The notes beneath the pieces are model-generated. The model saw nothing but the letters and a program-made list of their open reading frames with translations. It searched no databases and was not told the DNA's origin. Below, piece after piece: positions 27,504 to 33,871 of a DNA stretch of 64,000 nucleotides. How positions within the stretch are numbered: the first letter of the stretch is position 1; every line of letters begins with the position of its first letter. Location: NCBI GenBank assembly GCA_017461385.1, contig JAFTXZ010000003.1:146392-210391 (forward strand), read 5' to 3'. This DNA is from Clostridia bacterium (GTDB lineage: Bacteria > Bacillota > Clostridia > Oscillospirales > CAG-272). The translations under genes were made by a program, and so were the position numbers.

Positions 27504-28127
27504 TTACTTTGTGGACTTATTCTCTGCCAGCAAGTCTCTGATTTGCTTAAGTAGATCCTCGGTTGTTGGATTAGCAAGTCTTTCAGCCTCTGCTGCTTCC
27601 TCAGCTGCCTTAGCCTCTGCCTCAGCTTGAGCCTGAGCCTCTGCTTCCTTCTTTGCAAGGTAAGCTGCAACCGCTTCCTTGTCCTTTTTGTCAATACCGT
27701 TTGCCTTAAGCTCTGCCTTTAGTGCGCGCTTAGCTTCCTTTGCCTTCCTAGCTTCCTCGCCACCCTCTCTTACACCATTAATAATCTTAACGATTGAGAA
27801 AAGAACGAATGCGATGATAAAGAAGTTGATAATAGCGCTGATGAATGAGCCCCAGTCAATGTAAATGGAGCTTGCAAGGTCGATGACATCAGTAGCAGCA
27901 CCGTTTTCATCAAGAACGTATACTGGCGAAAGCACAGTGATAGCGCCACTAAGTCCGTCCTTGCCGATAATCAATGCCAAAACTGCGTTAATGAGTGGCT
28001 TTAGCACGTAGTTGCTGAGTCCGTTTACAATACCTGTGAATGCACCACCAACGATAACGCCGACAGCCATATCAACAACGTTGCCACGGGTAATAAACTT
28101 TTTGAATTCTTCAAAAAACTTTTTCAT
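27504..28127 (-). CDS. mscL: Large-conductance mechanosensitive channel MscL with an unusual about 70-aa Ala/Glu/Lys-rich C-terminal extension
   Basis: FITRGNVVDMAVGVIVGGAFTGIVN is the MscL TM1 signature. 207 aa versus the usual about 130-150 aa. Confidence 0.8.
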   Translation of the reverse strand: MKKFFEEFKKFITRGNVVDMAVGVIVGGAFTGIVNGLSNYVLKPLINAVLALIIGKDGLSGAITVLSPVYVLDENGAATDVIDLASSIYIDWGSFISAIINFFIIAFVLFSIVKIINGVREGGEEARKAKEAKRALKAELKANGIDKKDKEAVAAYLAKKEAEAQAQAEAEAKAAEEAAEAERLANPTTEDLLKQIRDLLAENKSTK

Positions 28128-28279
28128 TGTTTTTCTCCTTTATGTAGTTTTACATAAAAATTATACATTCAAATTAGACACTTGTCAAGAGAAAAGTCGA
28201 ATAATGCTTGATTTTGTCAATTTTATAAAATATAATAATTATAATAATACTGGAATATTACGAAAGGGGAATTTGCAAA

Positions 28280-29524
28280 ATGGCTAGCGAGCTTATAAAA
28301 AATTACGAAAAAATCCGTGATTATATGAGAGAATTTTACGTATACGGCTTTAAGTATCGTGAGGATTACAGCTCAAAGAGCGCTCGCTCCTATGATTACG
28401 AAAAGCACAGAATCGAAAGCTGGCTTGGAGACTATATGTCCTTTAACAGAACAGCTGATGGCAAAAACGTTTTTCTTTCTATTGATAGCCGTGATATTGT
28501 ATCAAACCCCCTGTTTCAATCCTTAAGGTCAAAAAGCTTCACGAGCAGAGATATCGCTCTGCACTTTTTAATTCTGGATTTACTACACTCCCCCCACGTC
28601 TCTCTTTCCCACAAGGAAATTTTGGAGGGAATCGATAAACAGCTTGCGGAAATGGGAAAAAGCATAACTGAGCTTTGCGATGAGTCCACCCTTAGAAAGA
28701 AGCTGAAGGATTATGAGGGTCAAGGTCTTCTTTGCTCCTTTAAGGAAGGTAAGACGGTAAAATACACTCGCCCCACAGAGCCGAGCCTTACCGAGCTTTA
28801 TCTCGCAATTGCATTTTTTGCCGAAACCTCTCCCTTAGGTGCACTAGGCTCTTTTATACTAAAGCGAGATGAAATGTCCCAGTTTCCTCTTTCCTTTAAG
28901 CATCACTACATTACCTCTGCCCTCGACAGTGATATTTTGTGCCAGGCACTTTTAGCCATAAGAGAAAGGCGAGAAATAGTGGTAAAAAGCAAAGCCAAGA
29001 GTGTCAAGGAGGGTCAAATAAGGGTTGTTCCCATAAAAATCTTTTCCAGCGCGCAAAATGGTAAGGTGCATCTTATGGCTTACGACCTGCGCCTGCAAAA
29101 AATGGTTCCTCTACGGGTTGATTACATAAAAAGCATTACTCTCGGTCAAAGCTACGAGGATTATGAATCTCTTTGTCAGCTATTTTCAAAAATGCGTAGC
29201 CACATTTGGGGCGTGTCTATGAAAAAGGATCTGGATGATACTGAATACGTGGAATTTACTGTGGAAATCAACAAGGGCGAGGAATATATATACAACCGAC
29301 TTATTCGCGAAAAGCGCTGTGGATTTGTGGAAATGATTGACGAAAATCACGCAAGATTTTATGCCTACATTTACGACAGTCAAGAAATTATACCTTGGGT
29401 GCGTACCTTTATCACAAGAATTACAAGCGTCAATTTTCAAAACAAGCACGTTTGTCAGCAGTTTTATAAGGATTTTGACTCTACCTACAAGCTTTATTTC
29501 AAAGACGAGGGGGAGAGTGTATGA
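28280..29524 (+). CDS. WYL-domain protein, first of a coupled pair (PafB/PafC-like architecture)
   Basis: IRVVPIKIFSSAQNGKVHLMAYDLRLQKMVPLRVDYIKSI has the WYL-domain pattern (beta-strands ending in an RxD-type motif). No confident N-terminal HTH seen. Confidence 0.45.
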   Translation: MASELIKNYEKIRDYMREFYVYGFKYREDYSSKSARSYDYEKHRIESWLGDYMSFNRTADGKNVFLSIDSRDIVSNPLFQSLRSKSFTSRDIALHFLILDLLHSPHVSLSHKEILEGIDKQLAEMGKSITELCDESTLRKKLKDYEGQGLLCSFKEGKTVKYTRPTEPSLTELYLAIAFFAETSPLGALGSFILKRDEMSQFPLSFKHHYITSALDSDILCQALLAIRERREIVVKSKAKSVKEGQIRVVPIKIFSSAQNGKVHLMAYDLRLQKMVPLRVDYIKSITLGQSYEDYESLCQLFSKMRSHIWGVSMKKDLDDTEYVEFTVEINKGEEYIYNRLIREKRCGFVEMIDENHARFYAYIYDSQEIIPWVRTFITRITSVNFQNKHVCQQFYKDFDSTYKLYFKDEGESV

Positions 29525-30444
29525 TTTTTAATGAAATTTACGGCGTATATTATGATACTGTTTCCAAAATCATAGCAAAAATTTTGGAAAAAGGCTCTCT
29601 TGAAAAGGGAGAGCTTTTAGAAATTGTAGAAAAATATGCCTTTTCCGATAGTTATATTGAAATTTCGCAAGCAATAAAGGATGAAAGGTGGCTCTTTCTT
29701 ACTAAGGACTTCAAAACTTGCCTTAAAAATCCACCTAAAACGCCCCTTACCACCTTGCAGTTAAGATGGCTTCGCTCCCTGCTTGAGGACAAAAGGTTTA
29801 AGCTTTTTGTAAAGGAAATTCCCTATCAGCTTTGGTGCTATGAGCCCTTATTTTTGCCTAGTGATATAGAATTTTACGACAAGTATGAGGATAGCGACCC
29901 TTATGAAAACGACTTCTATAAGGAAGTGTTTCATACTATTTTGGAGGCTATTGAGAGCCAAAGCGCCCTTGAGCTTTCCTTTATTACAAGGGCAGATAAA
30001 GCGAGACGCGTACAAGTTTTACCTAAGCGACTTGAGTATTCACAAAAGGACGACAAATTTCGCCTTATTGTGTCTGGCAACAAGGACATAGGAGTTATTA
30101 ATCTTTCGACTATCGTCTTTTGTAAGGCTGTACCTAAGCTTAATTGGCTAGCAGATAAGAGTCGCGTGTCAAGAACAAAGACCCTTACCCTTGAGCTAAC
30201 TGACAAAAGAAACACTCTCGAAAGGCTTATGCTACATTTTGCCCACTTCAAAAAGCAAGCAAGGAAAACCGACAAGGACAAATATACGGTGCAAATTGAG
30301 TATAGCGCCCAGGACGAAAGCGAGCTTTTAATTCGCGTGCTTTCCTTTGGCCCAACGGTGCGTGCCGTTGCCCCACAAGATTTTGTGGAGCTTATAAAAG
30401 CGCGACTTGAAAAGCAACAACTTCTCTTTTCCAGTAAAAAATAA
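29521..30444 (+). CDS. WYL-domain transcriptional-regulator-like protein, second of the pair: N-terminal wHTH-like, WYL, C-terminal WCX-like
   Basis: RVQVLPKRLEYSQKDDKFRLIVSGNKDIGVINLSTIV is WYL-like; C-terminal VRAVAPQDFVELIKARL is WCX-like. The start overlaps the upstream gene by 4 nt. Confidence 0.5.
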   Translation: MIFNEIYGVYYDTVSKIIAKILEKGSLEKGELLEIVEKYAFSDSYIEISQAIKDERWLFLTKDFKTCLKNPPKTPLTTLQLRWLRSLLEDKRFKLFVKEIPYQLWCYEPLFLPSDIEFYDKYEDSDPYENDFYKEVFHTILEAIESQSALELSFITRADKARRVQVLPKRLEYSQKDDKFRLIVSGNKDIGVINLSTIVFCKAVPKLNWLADKSRVSRTKTLTLELTDKRNTLERLMLHFAHFKKQARKTDKDKYTVQIEYSAQDESELLIRVLSFGPTVRAVAPQDFVELIKARLEKQQLLFSSKK

Positions 30445-30523
30445 TAAAAGGAACAGACGCTATGGAGCGTATTCTTAAGGACAGTTTTTGAAATGTAATA
30501 AAGTACGTTACCTACCGACAGGA

Positions 30524-30565
30524 AAAGGACGAAGAGTTGTAAAGCTCCTCGTCCTCTTTTCTTTG
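30524..30565 (+). terminator. Terminator after the WYL pair
   Basis: GGACGAAGAG...CTCCTCGTCC stem with one mismatch, then a T-rich tract. Confidence 0.5.
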
Positions 30566-30589
30566 CAAGCACTGCTTTTGTAGCCACAA

Positions 30590-30790
30590 ATGCAAATTTA
30601 GTGAAGTTTTCGCTTATGCGAAAGTGAAGTTGCTTTGCAGTGAAGTTCGTGCTATCGTACGAGTGAAGTTAAGTTTGCCCACCTTGCCGAAGGCAAAACT
30701 TCACGATCTGCAGGATCACTTCACTTACGAAGTAAACTTCACTTGCCCGCAAGGGCAAACTTAGTTGCGTAGTGTCCTTAAGGGCACTAC
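30590..30790. promoter_or_regulatory. Iteron-like array: 4 direct GTGAAGTT motifs, then 3 inverted AACTTCAC motifs, interleaved with at least 6 short perfect palindromes
   Basis: Read directly from the sequence. Palindromes are TTCGCTTATGCGAA, TCGTACGA, TTGCCGAAGGCAA, GATCTGCAGGATC, TTACGAAGTAA, TTGCCCGCAAGGGCAA and GCGTAGTG..CACTACGC. Confidence 0.6.
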
Positions 30791-31047
30791 GCATAGATGT
30801 CTGTTCTTTTTTTACTCAAAAAGCATAAAAAGATGCAAAAATCAAGAATTCGCAAGTTTTTTTCCGTGATTTGTTCCGTTTTATGCCATAAACTGATATT
30901 GTCAGCAGGACAGTACCAGTGATTTGTCGGTAAGTCAATTAAGACCTGGCGTCACGGAGATACACGAGTGTCCCATCGTTTTTTGCAATTTGCAAAAAGG
31001 GCTAATATTTCTCTTGTGTATATCAGCCTGCAAAAATGTGGTTCGAT

Positions 31048-31064
31048 TCCACGGAGTGTTGCTT
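31048..31064 (+). other. tRNA-like T-arm fragment (GTGG-TTCGATT-CCAC) with no complete tRNA around it
   Basis: GGTTCGATTCC matches the T-loop consensus GGTTCGAATCC with a 4-bp stem. No acceptor or anticodon arms could be built. Confidence 0.35.
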
Positions 31065-31453
31065 TTACACTTGTTGGTTACAATTTTTTTGCCAGAAGAA
31101 TAAAATCTTCCCAAAAATAACTAAGGAGTTATAAAAAACATAAACACACTCTTGAACCCCGTCTCCATGCCTTTCCCTAAGGGCAAGCCTGCCTATAATA
31201 AATAGGTAGGCCTTAAGAGTGCCATTGCCACACGCCGTGGCAATGGCTAACGCCTAATGGTAAAGGATATACAAGCGAGCCTTGTTGTTTTAAGGATATC
31301 GTAAAGGGCGTTTTGGCGCCAAGCTATAAAGCCCCGCTCCTTCTCCCCCTTTACTAAATTGAAATACCGCCGTTTGTATAAGAGGCGAGTTCATTCGCAT
31401 TCACCACGGCTTAGCCGCTTAATATAAGACTAAATACTAAAGGAGAAAACAGA

Positions 31454-32548
31454 ATGAAAAAGTATCTAATTAATGAAAATCAAAGAGGCTTACTTTTCAA
31501 AAAGGGTAAGCTTGAAGGGCTACTTTCCGCAGGTACATATAGATTTTTTGGACAAAGAGAGGTTGAAATAGTGTCTATTGATGCACCAATTGTCTCAAGC
31601 AGATGCTCACTTGATGCCTTGCTTGCCAACGAGAAAATCAAAAGCGCCTTAAACGTTTATGATATTCCTGCAGGAGAGTACGCAATGCGTATTGTAAATG
31701 GCATTTCTACTTCCTTTTTAAGGGAGGGTAGATATGCTTATCTTAAAACTCAAGGGTGTGAGGAGCTTTATCGCTTCGACACCTCCAGCCCAATAATTGA
31801 GAATGTTCCCTCTCAAATTATGGCGAAAATTCCTGCCCTTTACTATCAAAGGGTATCAGTTGCTTCCTACGAAAAGGCTCTGTTGTACCTTGACAACAAG
31901 CTTGACAGAGTGCTTGAGAGTGGAGTTTACTACTTCTGGAAGGGCTTCACTGACGTAAAGGTAATCCCTGTTGACACAAGACTCCAGCGAATGGACGTAG
32001 CGTGTCAGGAAATTCTTACTCAGGATAAGGTCAATGTTCGTATTAACTTCGTTTGCAATTATCGTGTTACAGATGCTGTAAGGGCTGTTACACAGCTTAA
32101 CTCTTACGAGGAGCAAATCAGACTCTATGCACAGCTTGCTATGCGCGATTACGTAAGCAAGGCAAGGCTTGATGAAATCCTTGAGAACAAGGACGCAATT
32201 TCTAAATACGTCTTTGAACAGCTTGTAAGTAAGGAGTCCGAGCTTAGCGTTAGCTTCTCTAACGCAGGCGTTAAGGATATCATTCTTCCAGGCGAGATAC
32301 GAGCTATAATGAACACCGTTCTTATGGCTGAAAAGAAGGCTCAGGCTAGCGTTATCGCTAGGCGCGAGGAGGTTGCTTCAACCCGTTCGCTTCTTAACAC
32401 TGCCAAGCTTATGGATGAAAATGCAACCCTTTACAAGCTTAAGGAGCTTGAGTACCTTGAGCGCATTTGCGAAAAGGTTGACACTCTTAACCTAAGCGGT
32501 GGCTCTAATGCAATCACAGAGCTTGCTTCAATTCTTAGAAGCAAATAA
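31454..32548 (+). CDS. SPFH/band-7 (stomatin/prohibitin-like, slipin-type) domain protein
   Basis: NENQRGLLFKKGKLEGLLSAGTYRFFGQREVEIVS and the C-terminal coiled region match the SPFH pattern. RBS AAAGGAG. Confidence 0.6.
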   Translation: MKKYLINENQRGLLFKKGKLEGLLSAGTYRFFGQREVEIVSIDAPIVSSRCSLDALLANEKIKSALNVYDIPAGEYAMRIVNGISTSFLREGRYAYLKTQGCEELYRFDTSSPIIENVPSQIMAKIPALYYQRVSVASYEKALLYLDNKLDRVLESGVYYFWKGFTDVKVIPVDTRLQRMDVACQEILTQDKVNVRINFVCNYRVTDAVRAVTQLNSYEEQIRLYAQLAMRDYVSKARLDEILENKDAISKYVFEQLVSKESELSVSFSNAGVKDIILPGEIRAIMNTVLMAEKKAQASVIARREEVASTRSLLNTAKLMDENATLYKLKELEYLERICEKVDTLNLSGGSNAITELASILRSK

Positions 32549-32659: not shown

Positions 32660-33871
32660 ATGGTAGAGGTTTATGGTAAATATAACGTAGCAAAGTGCTA
32701 CACTGATATTTTAGCAGAGGACGCTTATGGTCAAATATTAAACGCCTGCAATAACGAGGCGTTTAAGGATTGTAAAATCAGAATTATGCCTGACGTTCAC
32801 TCAGGCAAGGGCTGTACCATTGGTACAACTATGACTATTATAGATAAGGTTCCACCCTCAATGGTTGGCATTGATATTGGCTGTGGTATGGAAACCGTTT
32901 GCATAGGCGATGGCGAGGTTGATTTCAAGAAGCTTGACGATTGCATCAGAAAAAACATTCCATCAGGCAACTCAAACAGAAAGACCTATCACAAATACGC
33001 TGAAAAAATCGACCTTAAGAAGCTTTACTGCTATGACAAAATTGAGGCTGAAAAGGCACTTTTCGGCTTAGGCACACTCGGTGGTGGTAATCACTTTATT
33101 GAGATTGACAAGGACGAGGACGGGCTCAAGTATTTAGTCGTTCACTCTGGTAGCAGACGTTTAGGCAAGGAGGTGGCTGAATTTTACATAAAGGAAGCCT
33201 ACGAAATGCAACGCACATTCCCAGAGTCCTTACGCGACAAGGTAACAAAGGAGCTTTTAGCTCAAGGCAAGAAGCAGGGCGAAATTGCTGAAATAATTGA
33301 CAAAATGAAAAAGGACTACGCCCAAATACCTGTTCTGAGAGATACTGCGTGCCTTGAGGGCAAGCTATTCAATGACTATATTCACGATATGAAAATAGTT
33401 CAAGAGTTCGCTACCCTTAACAGACAGGCAATTGCTGATACGATTATTTCCTGCCTGGGTCTTGCTCAAAGAGAGCGCTTCACCACTATTCACAACTATA
33501 TCGACACAGAGTCAATGATTTTGAGAAAGGGCTCCGTTTCTGCCAAAAAGGGTGAAAAGCTTTTGATTCCTATCAACATGCGTGACGGCGCGCTTATCTG
33601 TATCGGTAAGGGCAACGAGGATTGGAACTGCTCTGCTCCTCACGGCGCAGGCAGACTTCTAAAGAGAAGCACTGCAAAGGAAACCTTGTCTCTTGAGGAA
33701 TATCAAAAGCAAATGGAGGGCATCTATACAACCTGTGTATCTCAGGGCACTCTTGATGAGTCCCCTATGGCGTACAAGGATATGGACGCAATCGTTTCTC
33801 AAATCACTCCTACTGCCGAGATTGTAAAGGTGATTAAGCCTATATATAATTTCAAAGCATCAGGCAAGTAA
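32660..33871 (+). CDS. rtcB: RtcB-family RNA 3'-phosphate ligase
   Basis: MPDVHSGKGCTIG, DIGCGM, GGGNHFIEI, IHNYID and APHGAGR motifs in the canonical order. RBS AGGAGG. Confidence 0.85.
   Translation: MVEVYGKYNVAKCYTDILAEDAYGQILNACNNEAFKDCKIRIMPDVHSGKGCTIGTTMTIIDKVPPSMVGIDIGCGMETVCIGDGEVDFKKLDDCIRKNIPSGNSNRKTYHKYAEKIDLKKLYCYDKIEAEKALFGLGTLGGGNHFIEIDKDEDGLKYLVVHSGSRRLGKEVAEFYIKEAYEMQRTFPESLRDKVTKELLAQGKKQGEIAEIIDKMKKDYAQIPVLRDTACLEGKLFNDYIHDMKIVQEFATLNRQAIADTIISCLGLAQRERFTTIHNYIDTESMILRKGSVSAKKGEKLLIPINMRDGALICIGKGNEDWNCSAPHGAGRLLKRSTAKETLSLEEYQKQMEGIYTTCVSQGTLDESPMAYKDMDAIVSQITPTAEIVKVIKPIYNFKASGK

Follow-up and report, generated by a model that had tools for sequence, protein, structure and literature searches.

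Described WYL regulators and the window locus

RNA-repair operons are widespread and, to our knowledge, their regulation is understood only for the RtcR system of Proteobacteria; we know of no identified inducer of RtcB or of Pnkp/Hen1 in Gram-positive bacteria. Here we analyse a stretch of 64,000 nucleotides (nt) from a Clostridia bacterium (assembly GCA_017461385.1, contig JAFTXZ010000003.1, positions 146,392 to 210,391; hereafter, the window), in which two adjacent genes for WYL-domain proteins, designated A and B, precede an RNA-repair operon with a conserved 22-nt promoter element. We consider it likely that A and B together are a heteromeric WYL transcription factor, which would act at this element to switch on the adjacent RNA-repair operon.

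The fold family to which these proteins belong, combining a winged helix-turn-helix (wHTH) with WYL and WCX domains, is already known. In the PafBC pair of Actinobacteria, the helix-turn-helix (HTH) of PafB binds the promoter, PafC contacts the sigma factor, and single-stranded DNA (ssDNA) threads a tunnel formed by the WYL and WCX domains (PMC11804915). The binding site of DriD, a Caulobacter homodimer, overlaps the -35 region (PMC13004042). CapW and BrxR, on the other hand, are homodimeric repressors that recognize palindromic operators and are found next to CBASS or BREX. Lastly, RtcR, encoded next to an RtcB operon for RNA repair, is a dedicated regulator and responds to damaged RNA (PMC7790460). 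The features of the window that bear on the comparison with these systems are as follows:

28280-29524, + strand: gene A, an open reading frame of 414 amino acids (aa)
29521-30444, + strand: gene B, an open reading frame of 307 aa
29521-29524, + strand: ATGA start-stop overlap of A and B, with a Shine-Dalgarno (SD) sequence, GAGGGGGAG, just upstream and within the 3' end of A
30848-30869, + strand: conserved 22-nt promoter element ATTCGCAAGTTTTTTTCCGTGA (family consensus GTTCGCAGCTTTTTTTCCGTGA), a candidate A-B binding site that overlaps the -35 region
30889-30894, + strand: -10 hexamer TAAACT, starting exactly 19 nt after the element
31454-32548, + strand: gene for an SPFH/Band-7 protein, the first cargo gene (Pfam Band_7, E=1.4e-26)
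32660-33871, + strand: gene for the RNA ligase RtcB, the second cargo gene (Pfam RtcB, E=4.8e-59)

The A-B pair resembles PafBC in that it consists of two tandem, paralogous WYL-WCX subunits whose roles look asymmetric, associated to a non-palindromic site in the -35 region of sigma-A-type promoters, and in the existence of natural single-chain fusions, as in Arthrobacter PafBC. A keeps the equivalent of PafB R211 while B lacks both arginines, which would mirror PafBC, where only the WYL arginines of PafB are required. However, A-B is outside the PafBC orthologous group by sequence, taxon, neighbourhood and promoter motif. The top matches of the A profile among solved structures are PafB, with an E-value of 0.045 and over the WYL domain only, and then PafC (E=2.1); A has an additional N-terminal domain of 88 aa and B no recognisable HTH; and the hosts are Firmicutes instead of Actinobacteria, the neighbours are RNA-repair genes instead of those of the pup-proteasome (pafA), and the promoter motif is different.

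DriD is the best structural match of both proteins, and shares with the proposed system a site overlapping the -35 region and activation by a single-stranded nucleic acid, although it is a homodimer with a DNA-damage regulon and an ssDNA ligand. RtcR offers a parallel in its location and dedication, but A and B have no CARF, AAA+ or sigma-54 domains and the -10 of the promoter described here is of the sigma-70 type; by analogy, A-B would be the Firmicute functional counterpart of the CARF/sigma-54 regulator RtcR of Proteobacteria. CapW and BrxR show the same wHTH-WYL-WCX fold, but differ in the properties indicated above and in their defence neighbourhood, since no match to a defence system was found with PADLOC for A, SPFH or RtcB. 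The cargo also has described counterparts. In Burroughs & Aravind 2016, as cited in bioRxiv 10.1101/312249, where the descriptions concern the repair components, a Band-7/b7a-tRNA/RtcB system resembles the cargo of the window (SPFH protein, tRNA-like RNA and RtcB), and a Rot(TROVE)-like/Y-RNA/RtcB system resembles that of other genomes (DUF2828, pseudo-tRNAs and RtcB). The same 2016 study is cited by PMC9503650 with regard to WYL transcription factors in general. Our literature search, which did not cover Burroughs & Aravind 2016, found no paper on a WYL pair, its fusions or the element at RNA-repair operons.

A and B are WYL-WCX proteins encoded in tandem

Relatives of A occur in at least 577 species-level genomes, and 80 species-representative genomes, most of them from gut or rumen Clostridia, were retrieved. 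The hosts of the pair are Clostridia and Bacilli, with Hominibacterium faecale SF3, Subdoligranulum variabile and Enterococcus raffinosus as carriers with isolate or complete-genome records, that is, other than metagenome-assembled genomes. Counts of conserved pairs refer only to loci with room for the corresponding genes (70 for B after A; 56 with at least 3 kb beyond B), and family alignments comprise 35 members each for A (alignment A1) and for B (alignment A2).

B is located directly after A in all 70 related loci with room, a pairing well above what chance would give. Of 71 junctions, 49 show an RTGA overlap of 4 nt and 14 more show other overlaps, while 68 have an SD-like sequence ahead of B. 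The coordinates and the 4-nt overlap reported in the initial annotation were confirmed, with ATGA as the overlap and both genes on the + strand, and its conservation in relatives points to translational coupling of the two genes. Additionally, a search with the N-terminal domain of A retrieved long proteins that are A-linker-B fusions (P0289, P0304 and P0360), two of which match B over its entire length (9e-54 for P0289 and 7e-46 for P0360). Full-length A-B fusions form at least 25 clusters of 715-822 aa, 33-43% identical to P0289, and some of them come from NCBI genomes. Together, these genome comparisons indicate that A and B form an apparently obligate two-gene unit. The deduced domain organization of both proteins is as follows:

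A, residues 1-88: conserved N-terminal domain, with no match in Pfam or in profile searches of the PDB
A, residues ~89-165: wHTH, deduced from AlphaFold2 (AF2) secondary structure and Foldseek
A, residues ~218-291: WYL domain, containing the invariant R279-x-D281
A, residues ~295-408: WCX domain
B, residues 1-125: helical N-terminal domain, with no detectable HTH
B, residues ~131-204: divergent WYL barrel, with the invariant EYSxKDDKFR on the WYL strand
B, residues ~219-305: WCX domain

The A family comprises 5,791 matches, mostly of around 414 aa, many of which have a precomputed WYL match. Pfam detected the WYL domain (PF13280) in 31 of the 35 aligned members, with a best E-value of 1.6e-10, and the WCX domain in five. 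The AF2 model of A, with a predicted local distance difference test (pLDDT) of 72 and poor at residues 1-87 and 175-216, showed Foldseek matches to DriD (1.9e-11) and PafBC (3e-10), as well as to BrxR and CapW, in alignments of 300-358 columns. Separate matches of the model were to small wHTH repressors of the MecI, SqrR, NolR and ArsR type; profile support for the wHTH is weak, with matches to SmtB and PaaX, and the family alignment shows within it an invariant helix, S136-T137-x-R139-K140-K141. At the end of the WYL barrel, R279-V-D281 corresponds to the canonical R-x-D and is invariant in the family; R279 is the equivalent of PafB R211, whereas the position of R214 is mostly occupied by Tyr.

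Conservation within A is highest in the first 88 residues, with a mean column identity of 80%, and a phmmer search of 1.84 billion representative proteins found this domain only at the N-terminus of the A family. A match to TOP7 in the PDB profile search was discarded as noise. Speculatively, the helix/hairpin pattern of this arginine-rich domain could correspond to a second wHTH.

The B family is smaller, with 1,661 matches of around 303 aa, and more divergent in its WYL domain: none of its 35 aligned members matched Pfam WYL at E≤0.01, although the PADLOC WYL model matches residues 127-298 of B at 4e-10. Pfam WCX was found in 25 of the 35 members, with 3e-4 for the window protein. The AF2 model of B (pLDDT 87.7) contains five beta-strands at residues 149-204 and showed Foldseek matches to DriD (4e-8), PafBC, BrxR, CapW and WYL1 (6oaw), ranging from 4e-8 to 1e-4, whereas the B profile found no match among solved structures. 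The canonical FRLxRI strand reads INLSTI in the window protein and INLxRI in the family consensus, so that the positions of PafB R211 and R214 are occupied by N194 and T197 in the former and by N and R in the family. No HTH profile matched the 125 N-terminal residues. A and B align to each other by hhalign with an E-value of 0.0016, with their WYL and WCX domains in register, as distant paralogs only. NCBIfam holds no curated model for A or for B, and both are publicly annotated only as 'WYL domain-containing protein'.

The initial annotation considered A and B a PafB/PafC-like WYL pair, and this is borne out by the fold of both models, by the conserved pairing and overlap, and by the natural fusions. 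It also assigned WYL cores with an RxD motif to both proteins, and HTH-like and WCX-like termini to B. The WYL-WCX fold is indeed present in the two models and the WCX of B was found, but the RxD motif is exclusive to A, as is the clear wHTH, profiles detecting none in B.

A promoter element with fixed geometry is located downstream of B

The element follows the pattern GTTCGCAGC-T7-CCGTGA, also written (G)TTCGCA-NN-T7-CCGTGA, and appears within a few mismatches downstream of B in 63 of 70 genome loci, usually starting 1-3 nt past the stop codon of B. No variation was seen among the 63 copies in TCGCA (positions 3-7), the T-run, CC or G21, even though the corresponding A orthologs are only around 47% identical and the flanking DNA cannot be aligned. 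The window contains a single match in its 64 kb, for zero expected.

A -10 hexamer of the type TAnAAT is present exactly 19 nt downstream of the element in 137 of 145 non-redundant contexts, preceded by TGn in 58 of the 145, and transcription in the window would start near position 30900. From this spacing, the element spans approximately positions -54 to -33 and therefore overlaps a weak -35 (GTGAWW).

Scanning metagenome contigs with the exact 21-mer of the element yielded 120 loci; B is immediately upstream in 83 of the 93 that have room for it, and 55 of 60 carry same-strand repair genes downstream. The element also goes with displaced or duplicated cargo, as in loci L013, L034, L051, L068, L077 and L089, and heads a hen1-pnkp operon located behind a fusion gene (GTTCGCAGCTTTTTTTCCACGA, 19 nt before TATTAT). 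Degenerate versions were found in Enterococcus (CTCGCACCCTTTTTTAAAAGA, 19 nt before TAAGAT) and in loci L001 and L006 (around 17 and 19 nt to the -10, respectively). Conversely, L042 and L044, which have room and no repair genes, are also devoid of the element. These comparisons show that a common promoter element with a fixed geometry heads every type of repair cassette.

The pair is associated to RNA-repair cassettes of different types

In 54 of the 56 loci whose sequence extends 3 kb or more past B, the pair adjoins genes for RNA repair (SPFH, DUF2828, RtcB or RlaP). The initial annotation had described an SPFH-RtcB RNA-repair module beside the pair, which the Pfam matches to Band_7 and RtcB confirm, and had raised whether homologous pairs also adjoin rtcB; these counts extend the association to the relatives. 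The arrangements found after B included DUF2828>RtcB (13 loci), SPFH>RtcB (12), SPFH (8), RtcB>DUF2828 (7) and RtcB (3), plus six loci with variants containing RlaP, which corresponds to the Pfam 'RNA repair pathway DNA polymerase beta family'. The DUF2828/DUF7788 protein, of around 490 aa, occupies the place of SPFH and contains a DxSxS motif, which we take to be the mark of a metal site of the von Willebrand factor A (vWA) type.

The pair is also found with Hen1-Pnkp, the other classical bacterial RNA-repair system. The fused A-B gene P0403 is directly upstream of Hen1-Pnkp, as fusion P0399 is upstream of Band_7, and the complete megaplasmid of Enterococcus raffinosus contains two adjacent WYL-domain genes divergent from those for a Hen1_N-methyltransferase, Pnkp and RlaP. 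Hen1-Pnkp(-RlaP) operons with both the regulator family and the element were found in L205 (8352-12337) and L207 (306-4874), which indicates that a single module is common to two mechanistically different RNA-ligase systems. From the gene neighbourhoods compared, the association appears dedicated to RNA-repair cassettes of three ligase/cofactor types.

Proposed regulation of the repair operon by A-B

In the mechanism that we propose, A would be the DNA-binding and main sensing subunit, in view of its invariant wHTH helix and its counterpart of PafB Arg211, and B would be a PafC-like partner, joined to A by WCX-mediated dimerisation and perhaps in contact with RNA polymerase; the ligand groove of B is degenerate, and B shows no recognisable HTH. 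A-B would occupy the element, over the -35, through the wHTH of A and perhaps also through the N-terminal domain of A, and a single-stranded nucleic acid in the groove of the WYL and WCX domains would be the signal that switches it on. With its ligand bound, A-B would activate transcription of rtcB, of the SPFH gene and of the tRNA-like leader RNA. The promoter has a poor -35, and the activation would resemble that by DriD, at a site overlapping the -35, and by PafBC, through sigma adaptation. The most plausible signal would be products of RNA damage, such as cleaved tRNA or RNA ends. This is the most economical guess because of the cargo and because, in PMC9503650, WYL and CARF transcription factors are proposed as sensors of cyclic-phosphate-ended RNA that regulate RNA repair; the ligands named for PafBC, DriD and CapW, which are ssDNA, count against it. 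Given the rigid spacing of 19 nt and the lack of a palindrome in the site, we consider activation the likelier sign of regulation, with repression as a less probable but serious contender.

The locus thus provides a concrete and directly testable candidate triad of regulator, operator and cargo for RNA repair in Firmicutes, and would place the SPFH/tRNA-like-RNA and DUF2828/Y-like-RNA cofactors under one common scheme of regulation. It makes testable now the signal for RNA repair, the sensing of RNA damage by WYL proteins, and whether the heterodimeric design recurs among WYL factors or is a peculiarity of PafBC. In a broader version, which we put forward tentatively and with more doubt than confidence, A-B might be the first WYL transcription factor other than PafBC to be heteromeric, and the first with a natural damaged-RNA ligand (tRNA halves, 2',3'-cyclic-phosphate ends), constituting a universal RNA-damage switch of Firmicutes. 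A single 22-bp element would then drive interchangeable cassettes, consisting of RtcB, SPFH and a tRNA-like RNA; of RtcB, the Ro-like DUF2828 and Y-like RNAs; or of Hen1-Pnkp-RlaP.

Several observations weigh against an action of A-B at the element, starting with the fact that we infer the binding to this DNA, the formation of a heterodimer, the ligand and the sign of regulation. With respect to the proteins, the A protein of the window is itself below the Pfam threshold for WYL (E=0.013, residues 224-287), its 88 N-terminal residues are modelled poorly and are unexplained, and B is missing both of the arginines that are essential in PafB. With respect to the DNA, k-mer counts of the regions upstream of A in 75 loci revealed no conserved site apart from the SD; a shared operator for autoregulation at that position was therefore discarded, and autoregulation through the downstream element is not indicated, the element being near A only in L019 and in the divergent L006. 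Also, GTGAWW, formed by the last four bases of the element and the next two, could be a plain -35 hexamer, and the T-run could work as an UP-like element, as in a housekeeping promoter. Finally, the 5' half and the T-run of the element are, in most genomes, the 3' arm and the U-tract of a covarying A-B terminator, and part of the conservation of the element thus has another cause.

An explanation that we deem unlikely is that A-B is a repressor of the CapW/BrxR type, which would block RNA polymerase at the element until released by its ligand. Defence proteins of the CapW type with a wHTH-WYL-WCX organization are repressors released by ssDNA (PMC11662680), and the models of both A and B also match BrxR and CapW; moreover, with good -10 hexamers, extended by TGn in the 58 contexts mentioned, the promoter might fire without an activator. 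Nevertheless, a non-palindromic element at a rigid distance of 19 nt is what would be expected of an activator that docks polymerase and is not needed by a repressor, the relatives known to be heteromeric (PafBC) or to overlap the -35 (DriD) are activators, and the -35 is poor.

It seems improbable to us that A-B is instead a general regulator of DNA damage or phage defence, in the sense of PafBC, DriD and CapW, with an ssDNA ligand and a wide regulon of which the adjacent RNA-repair operon would be a single target. The ligands established to date for HTH-WYL-WCX regulators of this type, all of them ssDNA, would suit it, and DNA damage induces the rtcBA operon of Salmonella by way of tRNA cleavage. 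The titles of PMC7790460 and PMC9879122 also point in this direction. However, the element is found once in the 64-kb window and, in 200 loci, essentially only at repair cassettes, and the presence of three mechanistically different RNA-repair cassettes beside the pair argues for a dedicated role. The link to phage defence suggested in the initial annotation found no support: PADLOC analysis of A, B, SPFH and RtcB gave no match to a defence system (A was only marginal), except for that of B to a generic CRISPR-associated WYL model, and homologs of A were not found in phage records.

Somewhat less probable still is that the element is only a terminator plus a core promoter or UP element, not read by A-B, which would act elsewhere or be unrelated. 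The terminator concerned is, in the window:

30451-30813, + strand: intrinsic A-B terminator, split by an insertion, with stem halves GAACAGAC (30451-30458) and GTCTGTTC (30799-30806) and a T7 run (30807-30813)

Locus L201 contains an intact version, GAACAGAC-gctagat-GTCTGTTC-T7, with a folding energy of -16.7 kcal/mol (z=-4.6), and the hairpin is strong in L038 (-25.8 kcal/mol, z=-6.3). Positions 8-9 of the element covary with the 5' arm (GCAGC, GCAAC, GCAGA, GCATC, GCACA), which shows a real terminator function, and T-runs can act as UP elements. But neither terminators nor UP elements require the invariant TCGCA and CCGTG, and the element persists without its partner arm in around 12 loci and in the window, where positions 30835-30880 show no RNA structure (-3.4 kcal/mol, z=+0.6) and the terminator is located around 35 nt upstream. 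Additionally, the element co-occurs with A-B across Clostridia and, in a diverged form, in Bacilli. Lastly, that A-B is an RNA-binding repair accessory, like WYL1 with Cas13d, that binds tRNA-like or damaged RNA or acts on U-rich terminator read-through, would agree with the Sm-like WYL fold (PMC11804915), the match of the B model to WYL1, the vicinity of the U7 of the element to the terminator and the uncharacterised arginine-rich N-terminal domain of A, but is highly improbable in view of the conventional wHTH of A with its invariant recognition helix, and of an element that keeps a fixed promoter distance, forms no RNA structure in the window, where 35 nt separate it from the terminator, and also precedes cargo that is divergent or remote from A-B.

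The last codons of B make up, in most genomes, the 5' arm of the terminator. The C-terminus QKSCEL/GL* of B is encoded by this arm, AAAAGCTGCGRAC, in L038 (2225-2272) and in most of L002-L079, and conservation of the peptide may thus be driven by the RNA/DNA element. In the lineage of the window, in which terminator and element are apart, B ends in …LLFSSKK instead.

Leader RNA and tRNA-like genes of the repair operons

Between the promoter and the first cargo gene, the window contains:

30900-31453, + strand: structured leader or non-coding RNA of the repair operon, conserved across SPFH-type loci
31038-31052, + strand: tRNA-like T-arm GTGG-TTCGATT-CCAC, within the leader

A second conserved module of the leader, GCCTTGT…GGATAYCG…GCCA…CTNAA…CCGCC, extends to the ribosome-binding site of the SPFH gene. 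Folding of 16 orthologous leaders with RNAalifold gave 23 pairs, ten of them with compensatory changes. A 'band-7-associated tRNA' and Y-RNA-like cofactors are credited to Burroughs & Aravind 2016 (bioRxiv 10.1101/312249), and the leader RNA of SPFH loci is probably this 'band-7-associated tRNA', which was predicted and never validated. The leader sequence CUUCUCCCCCUUU was considered as a possible mimic of an anti-SD, and dropped for its lack of alignment between loci.

ARAGORN called between one and three tRNA-like genes per locus when B is followed by DUF2828 and/or RtcB, and also in the SPFH locus L043. They are located between the pair and DUF2828/RtcB in L020, L027, L048, L052, L057, L066, L070 and L076, and include unusual anticodons (Arg-tcg, Phe-aaa, Ile-aat/tat, Tyr-ata, Ser-cga). 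These tRNA-like genes look like YrlA/Y-RNA-type cofactors serving the Ro-like DUF2828 protein, and in some loci, L019, L072 and L077 among them, repeated …ACAGCA…CTTGT… stems enclose them.

An insertion with Gut-1 motifs and other features of the window

The iteron-like array that the initial annotation highlighted next to the pair turned out to be two Gut-1 motifs contained in an insertion:

30463-30793, no strand assigned: 331-nt insertion resembling a miniature inverted-repeat transposable element (MITE), with a TA duplication and imperfect terminal inverted repeats (TG…CTTAAGGACA)
30693-30767, - strand: Gut-1 (RF01706) copy, 53.3 bits, above the Rfam gathering threshold
30599-30674, + strand: second, convergent Gut-1 (RF01706) copy, 35.9 bits

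The insertion point is a TA within the loop of the A-B terminator, which became duplicated. Locus L201, from a relative with 99% identity and the same synteny, lacks exactly positions 30463-30793; the array is therefore outside the regulator-cargo unit, and was ruled out as an operator. The 331-nt block looks like a MITE-type insertion, and blastn comparison with L001-L203 revealed related copies in L011, L006 and L067. In a pattern scan of the 80 genome loci and the window, arrays of the Gut-1 type appeared only in the window and in L006, and Gut-1 could belong to a small mobile element instead of being an independent small RNA gene.

The neighbours of A-B in the window are CysS, Dus, MscL, SPFH and RtcB. 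The region upstream of A contains:

28208-28236, + strand: putative promoter of the sigma-70 type for the A-B operon, TTGATT-17-TATAAT, from a consensus scan only
28160-28188, - strand: perfect consensus promoter, TTGACA-17-TATAAT, of the divergent MscL-family gene, from a promoter scan
27504-28127, - strand: MscL-family gene, divergent from A-B

The product of this MscL-family gene shows an unusually long C-terminal tail, rich in Ala, Glu and Lys.

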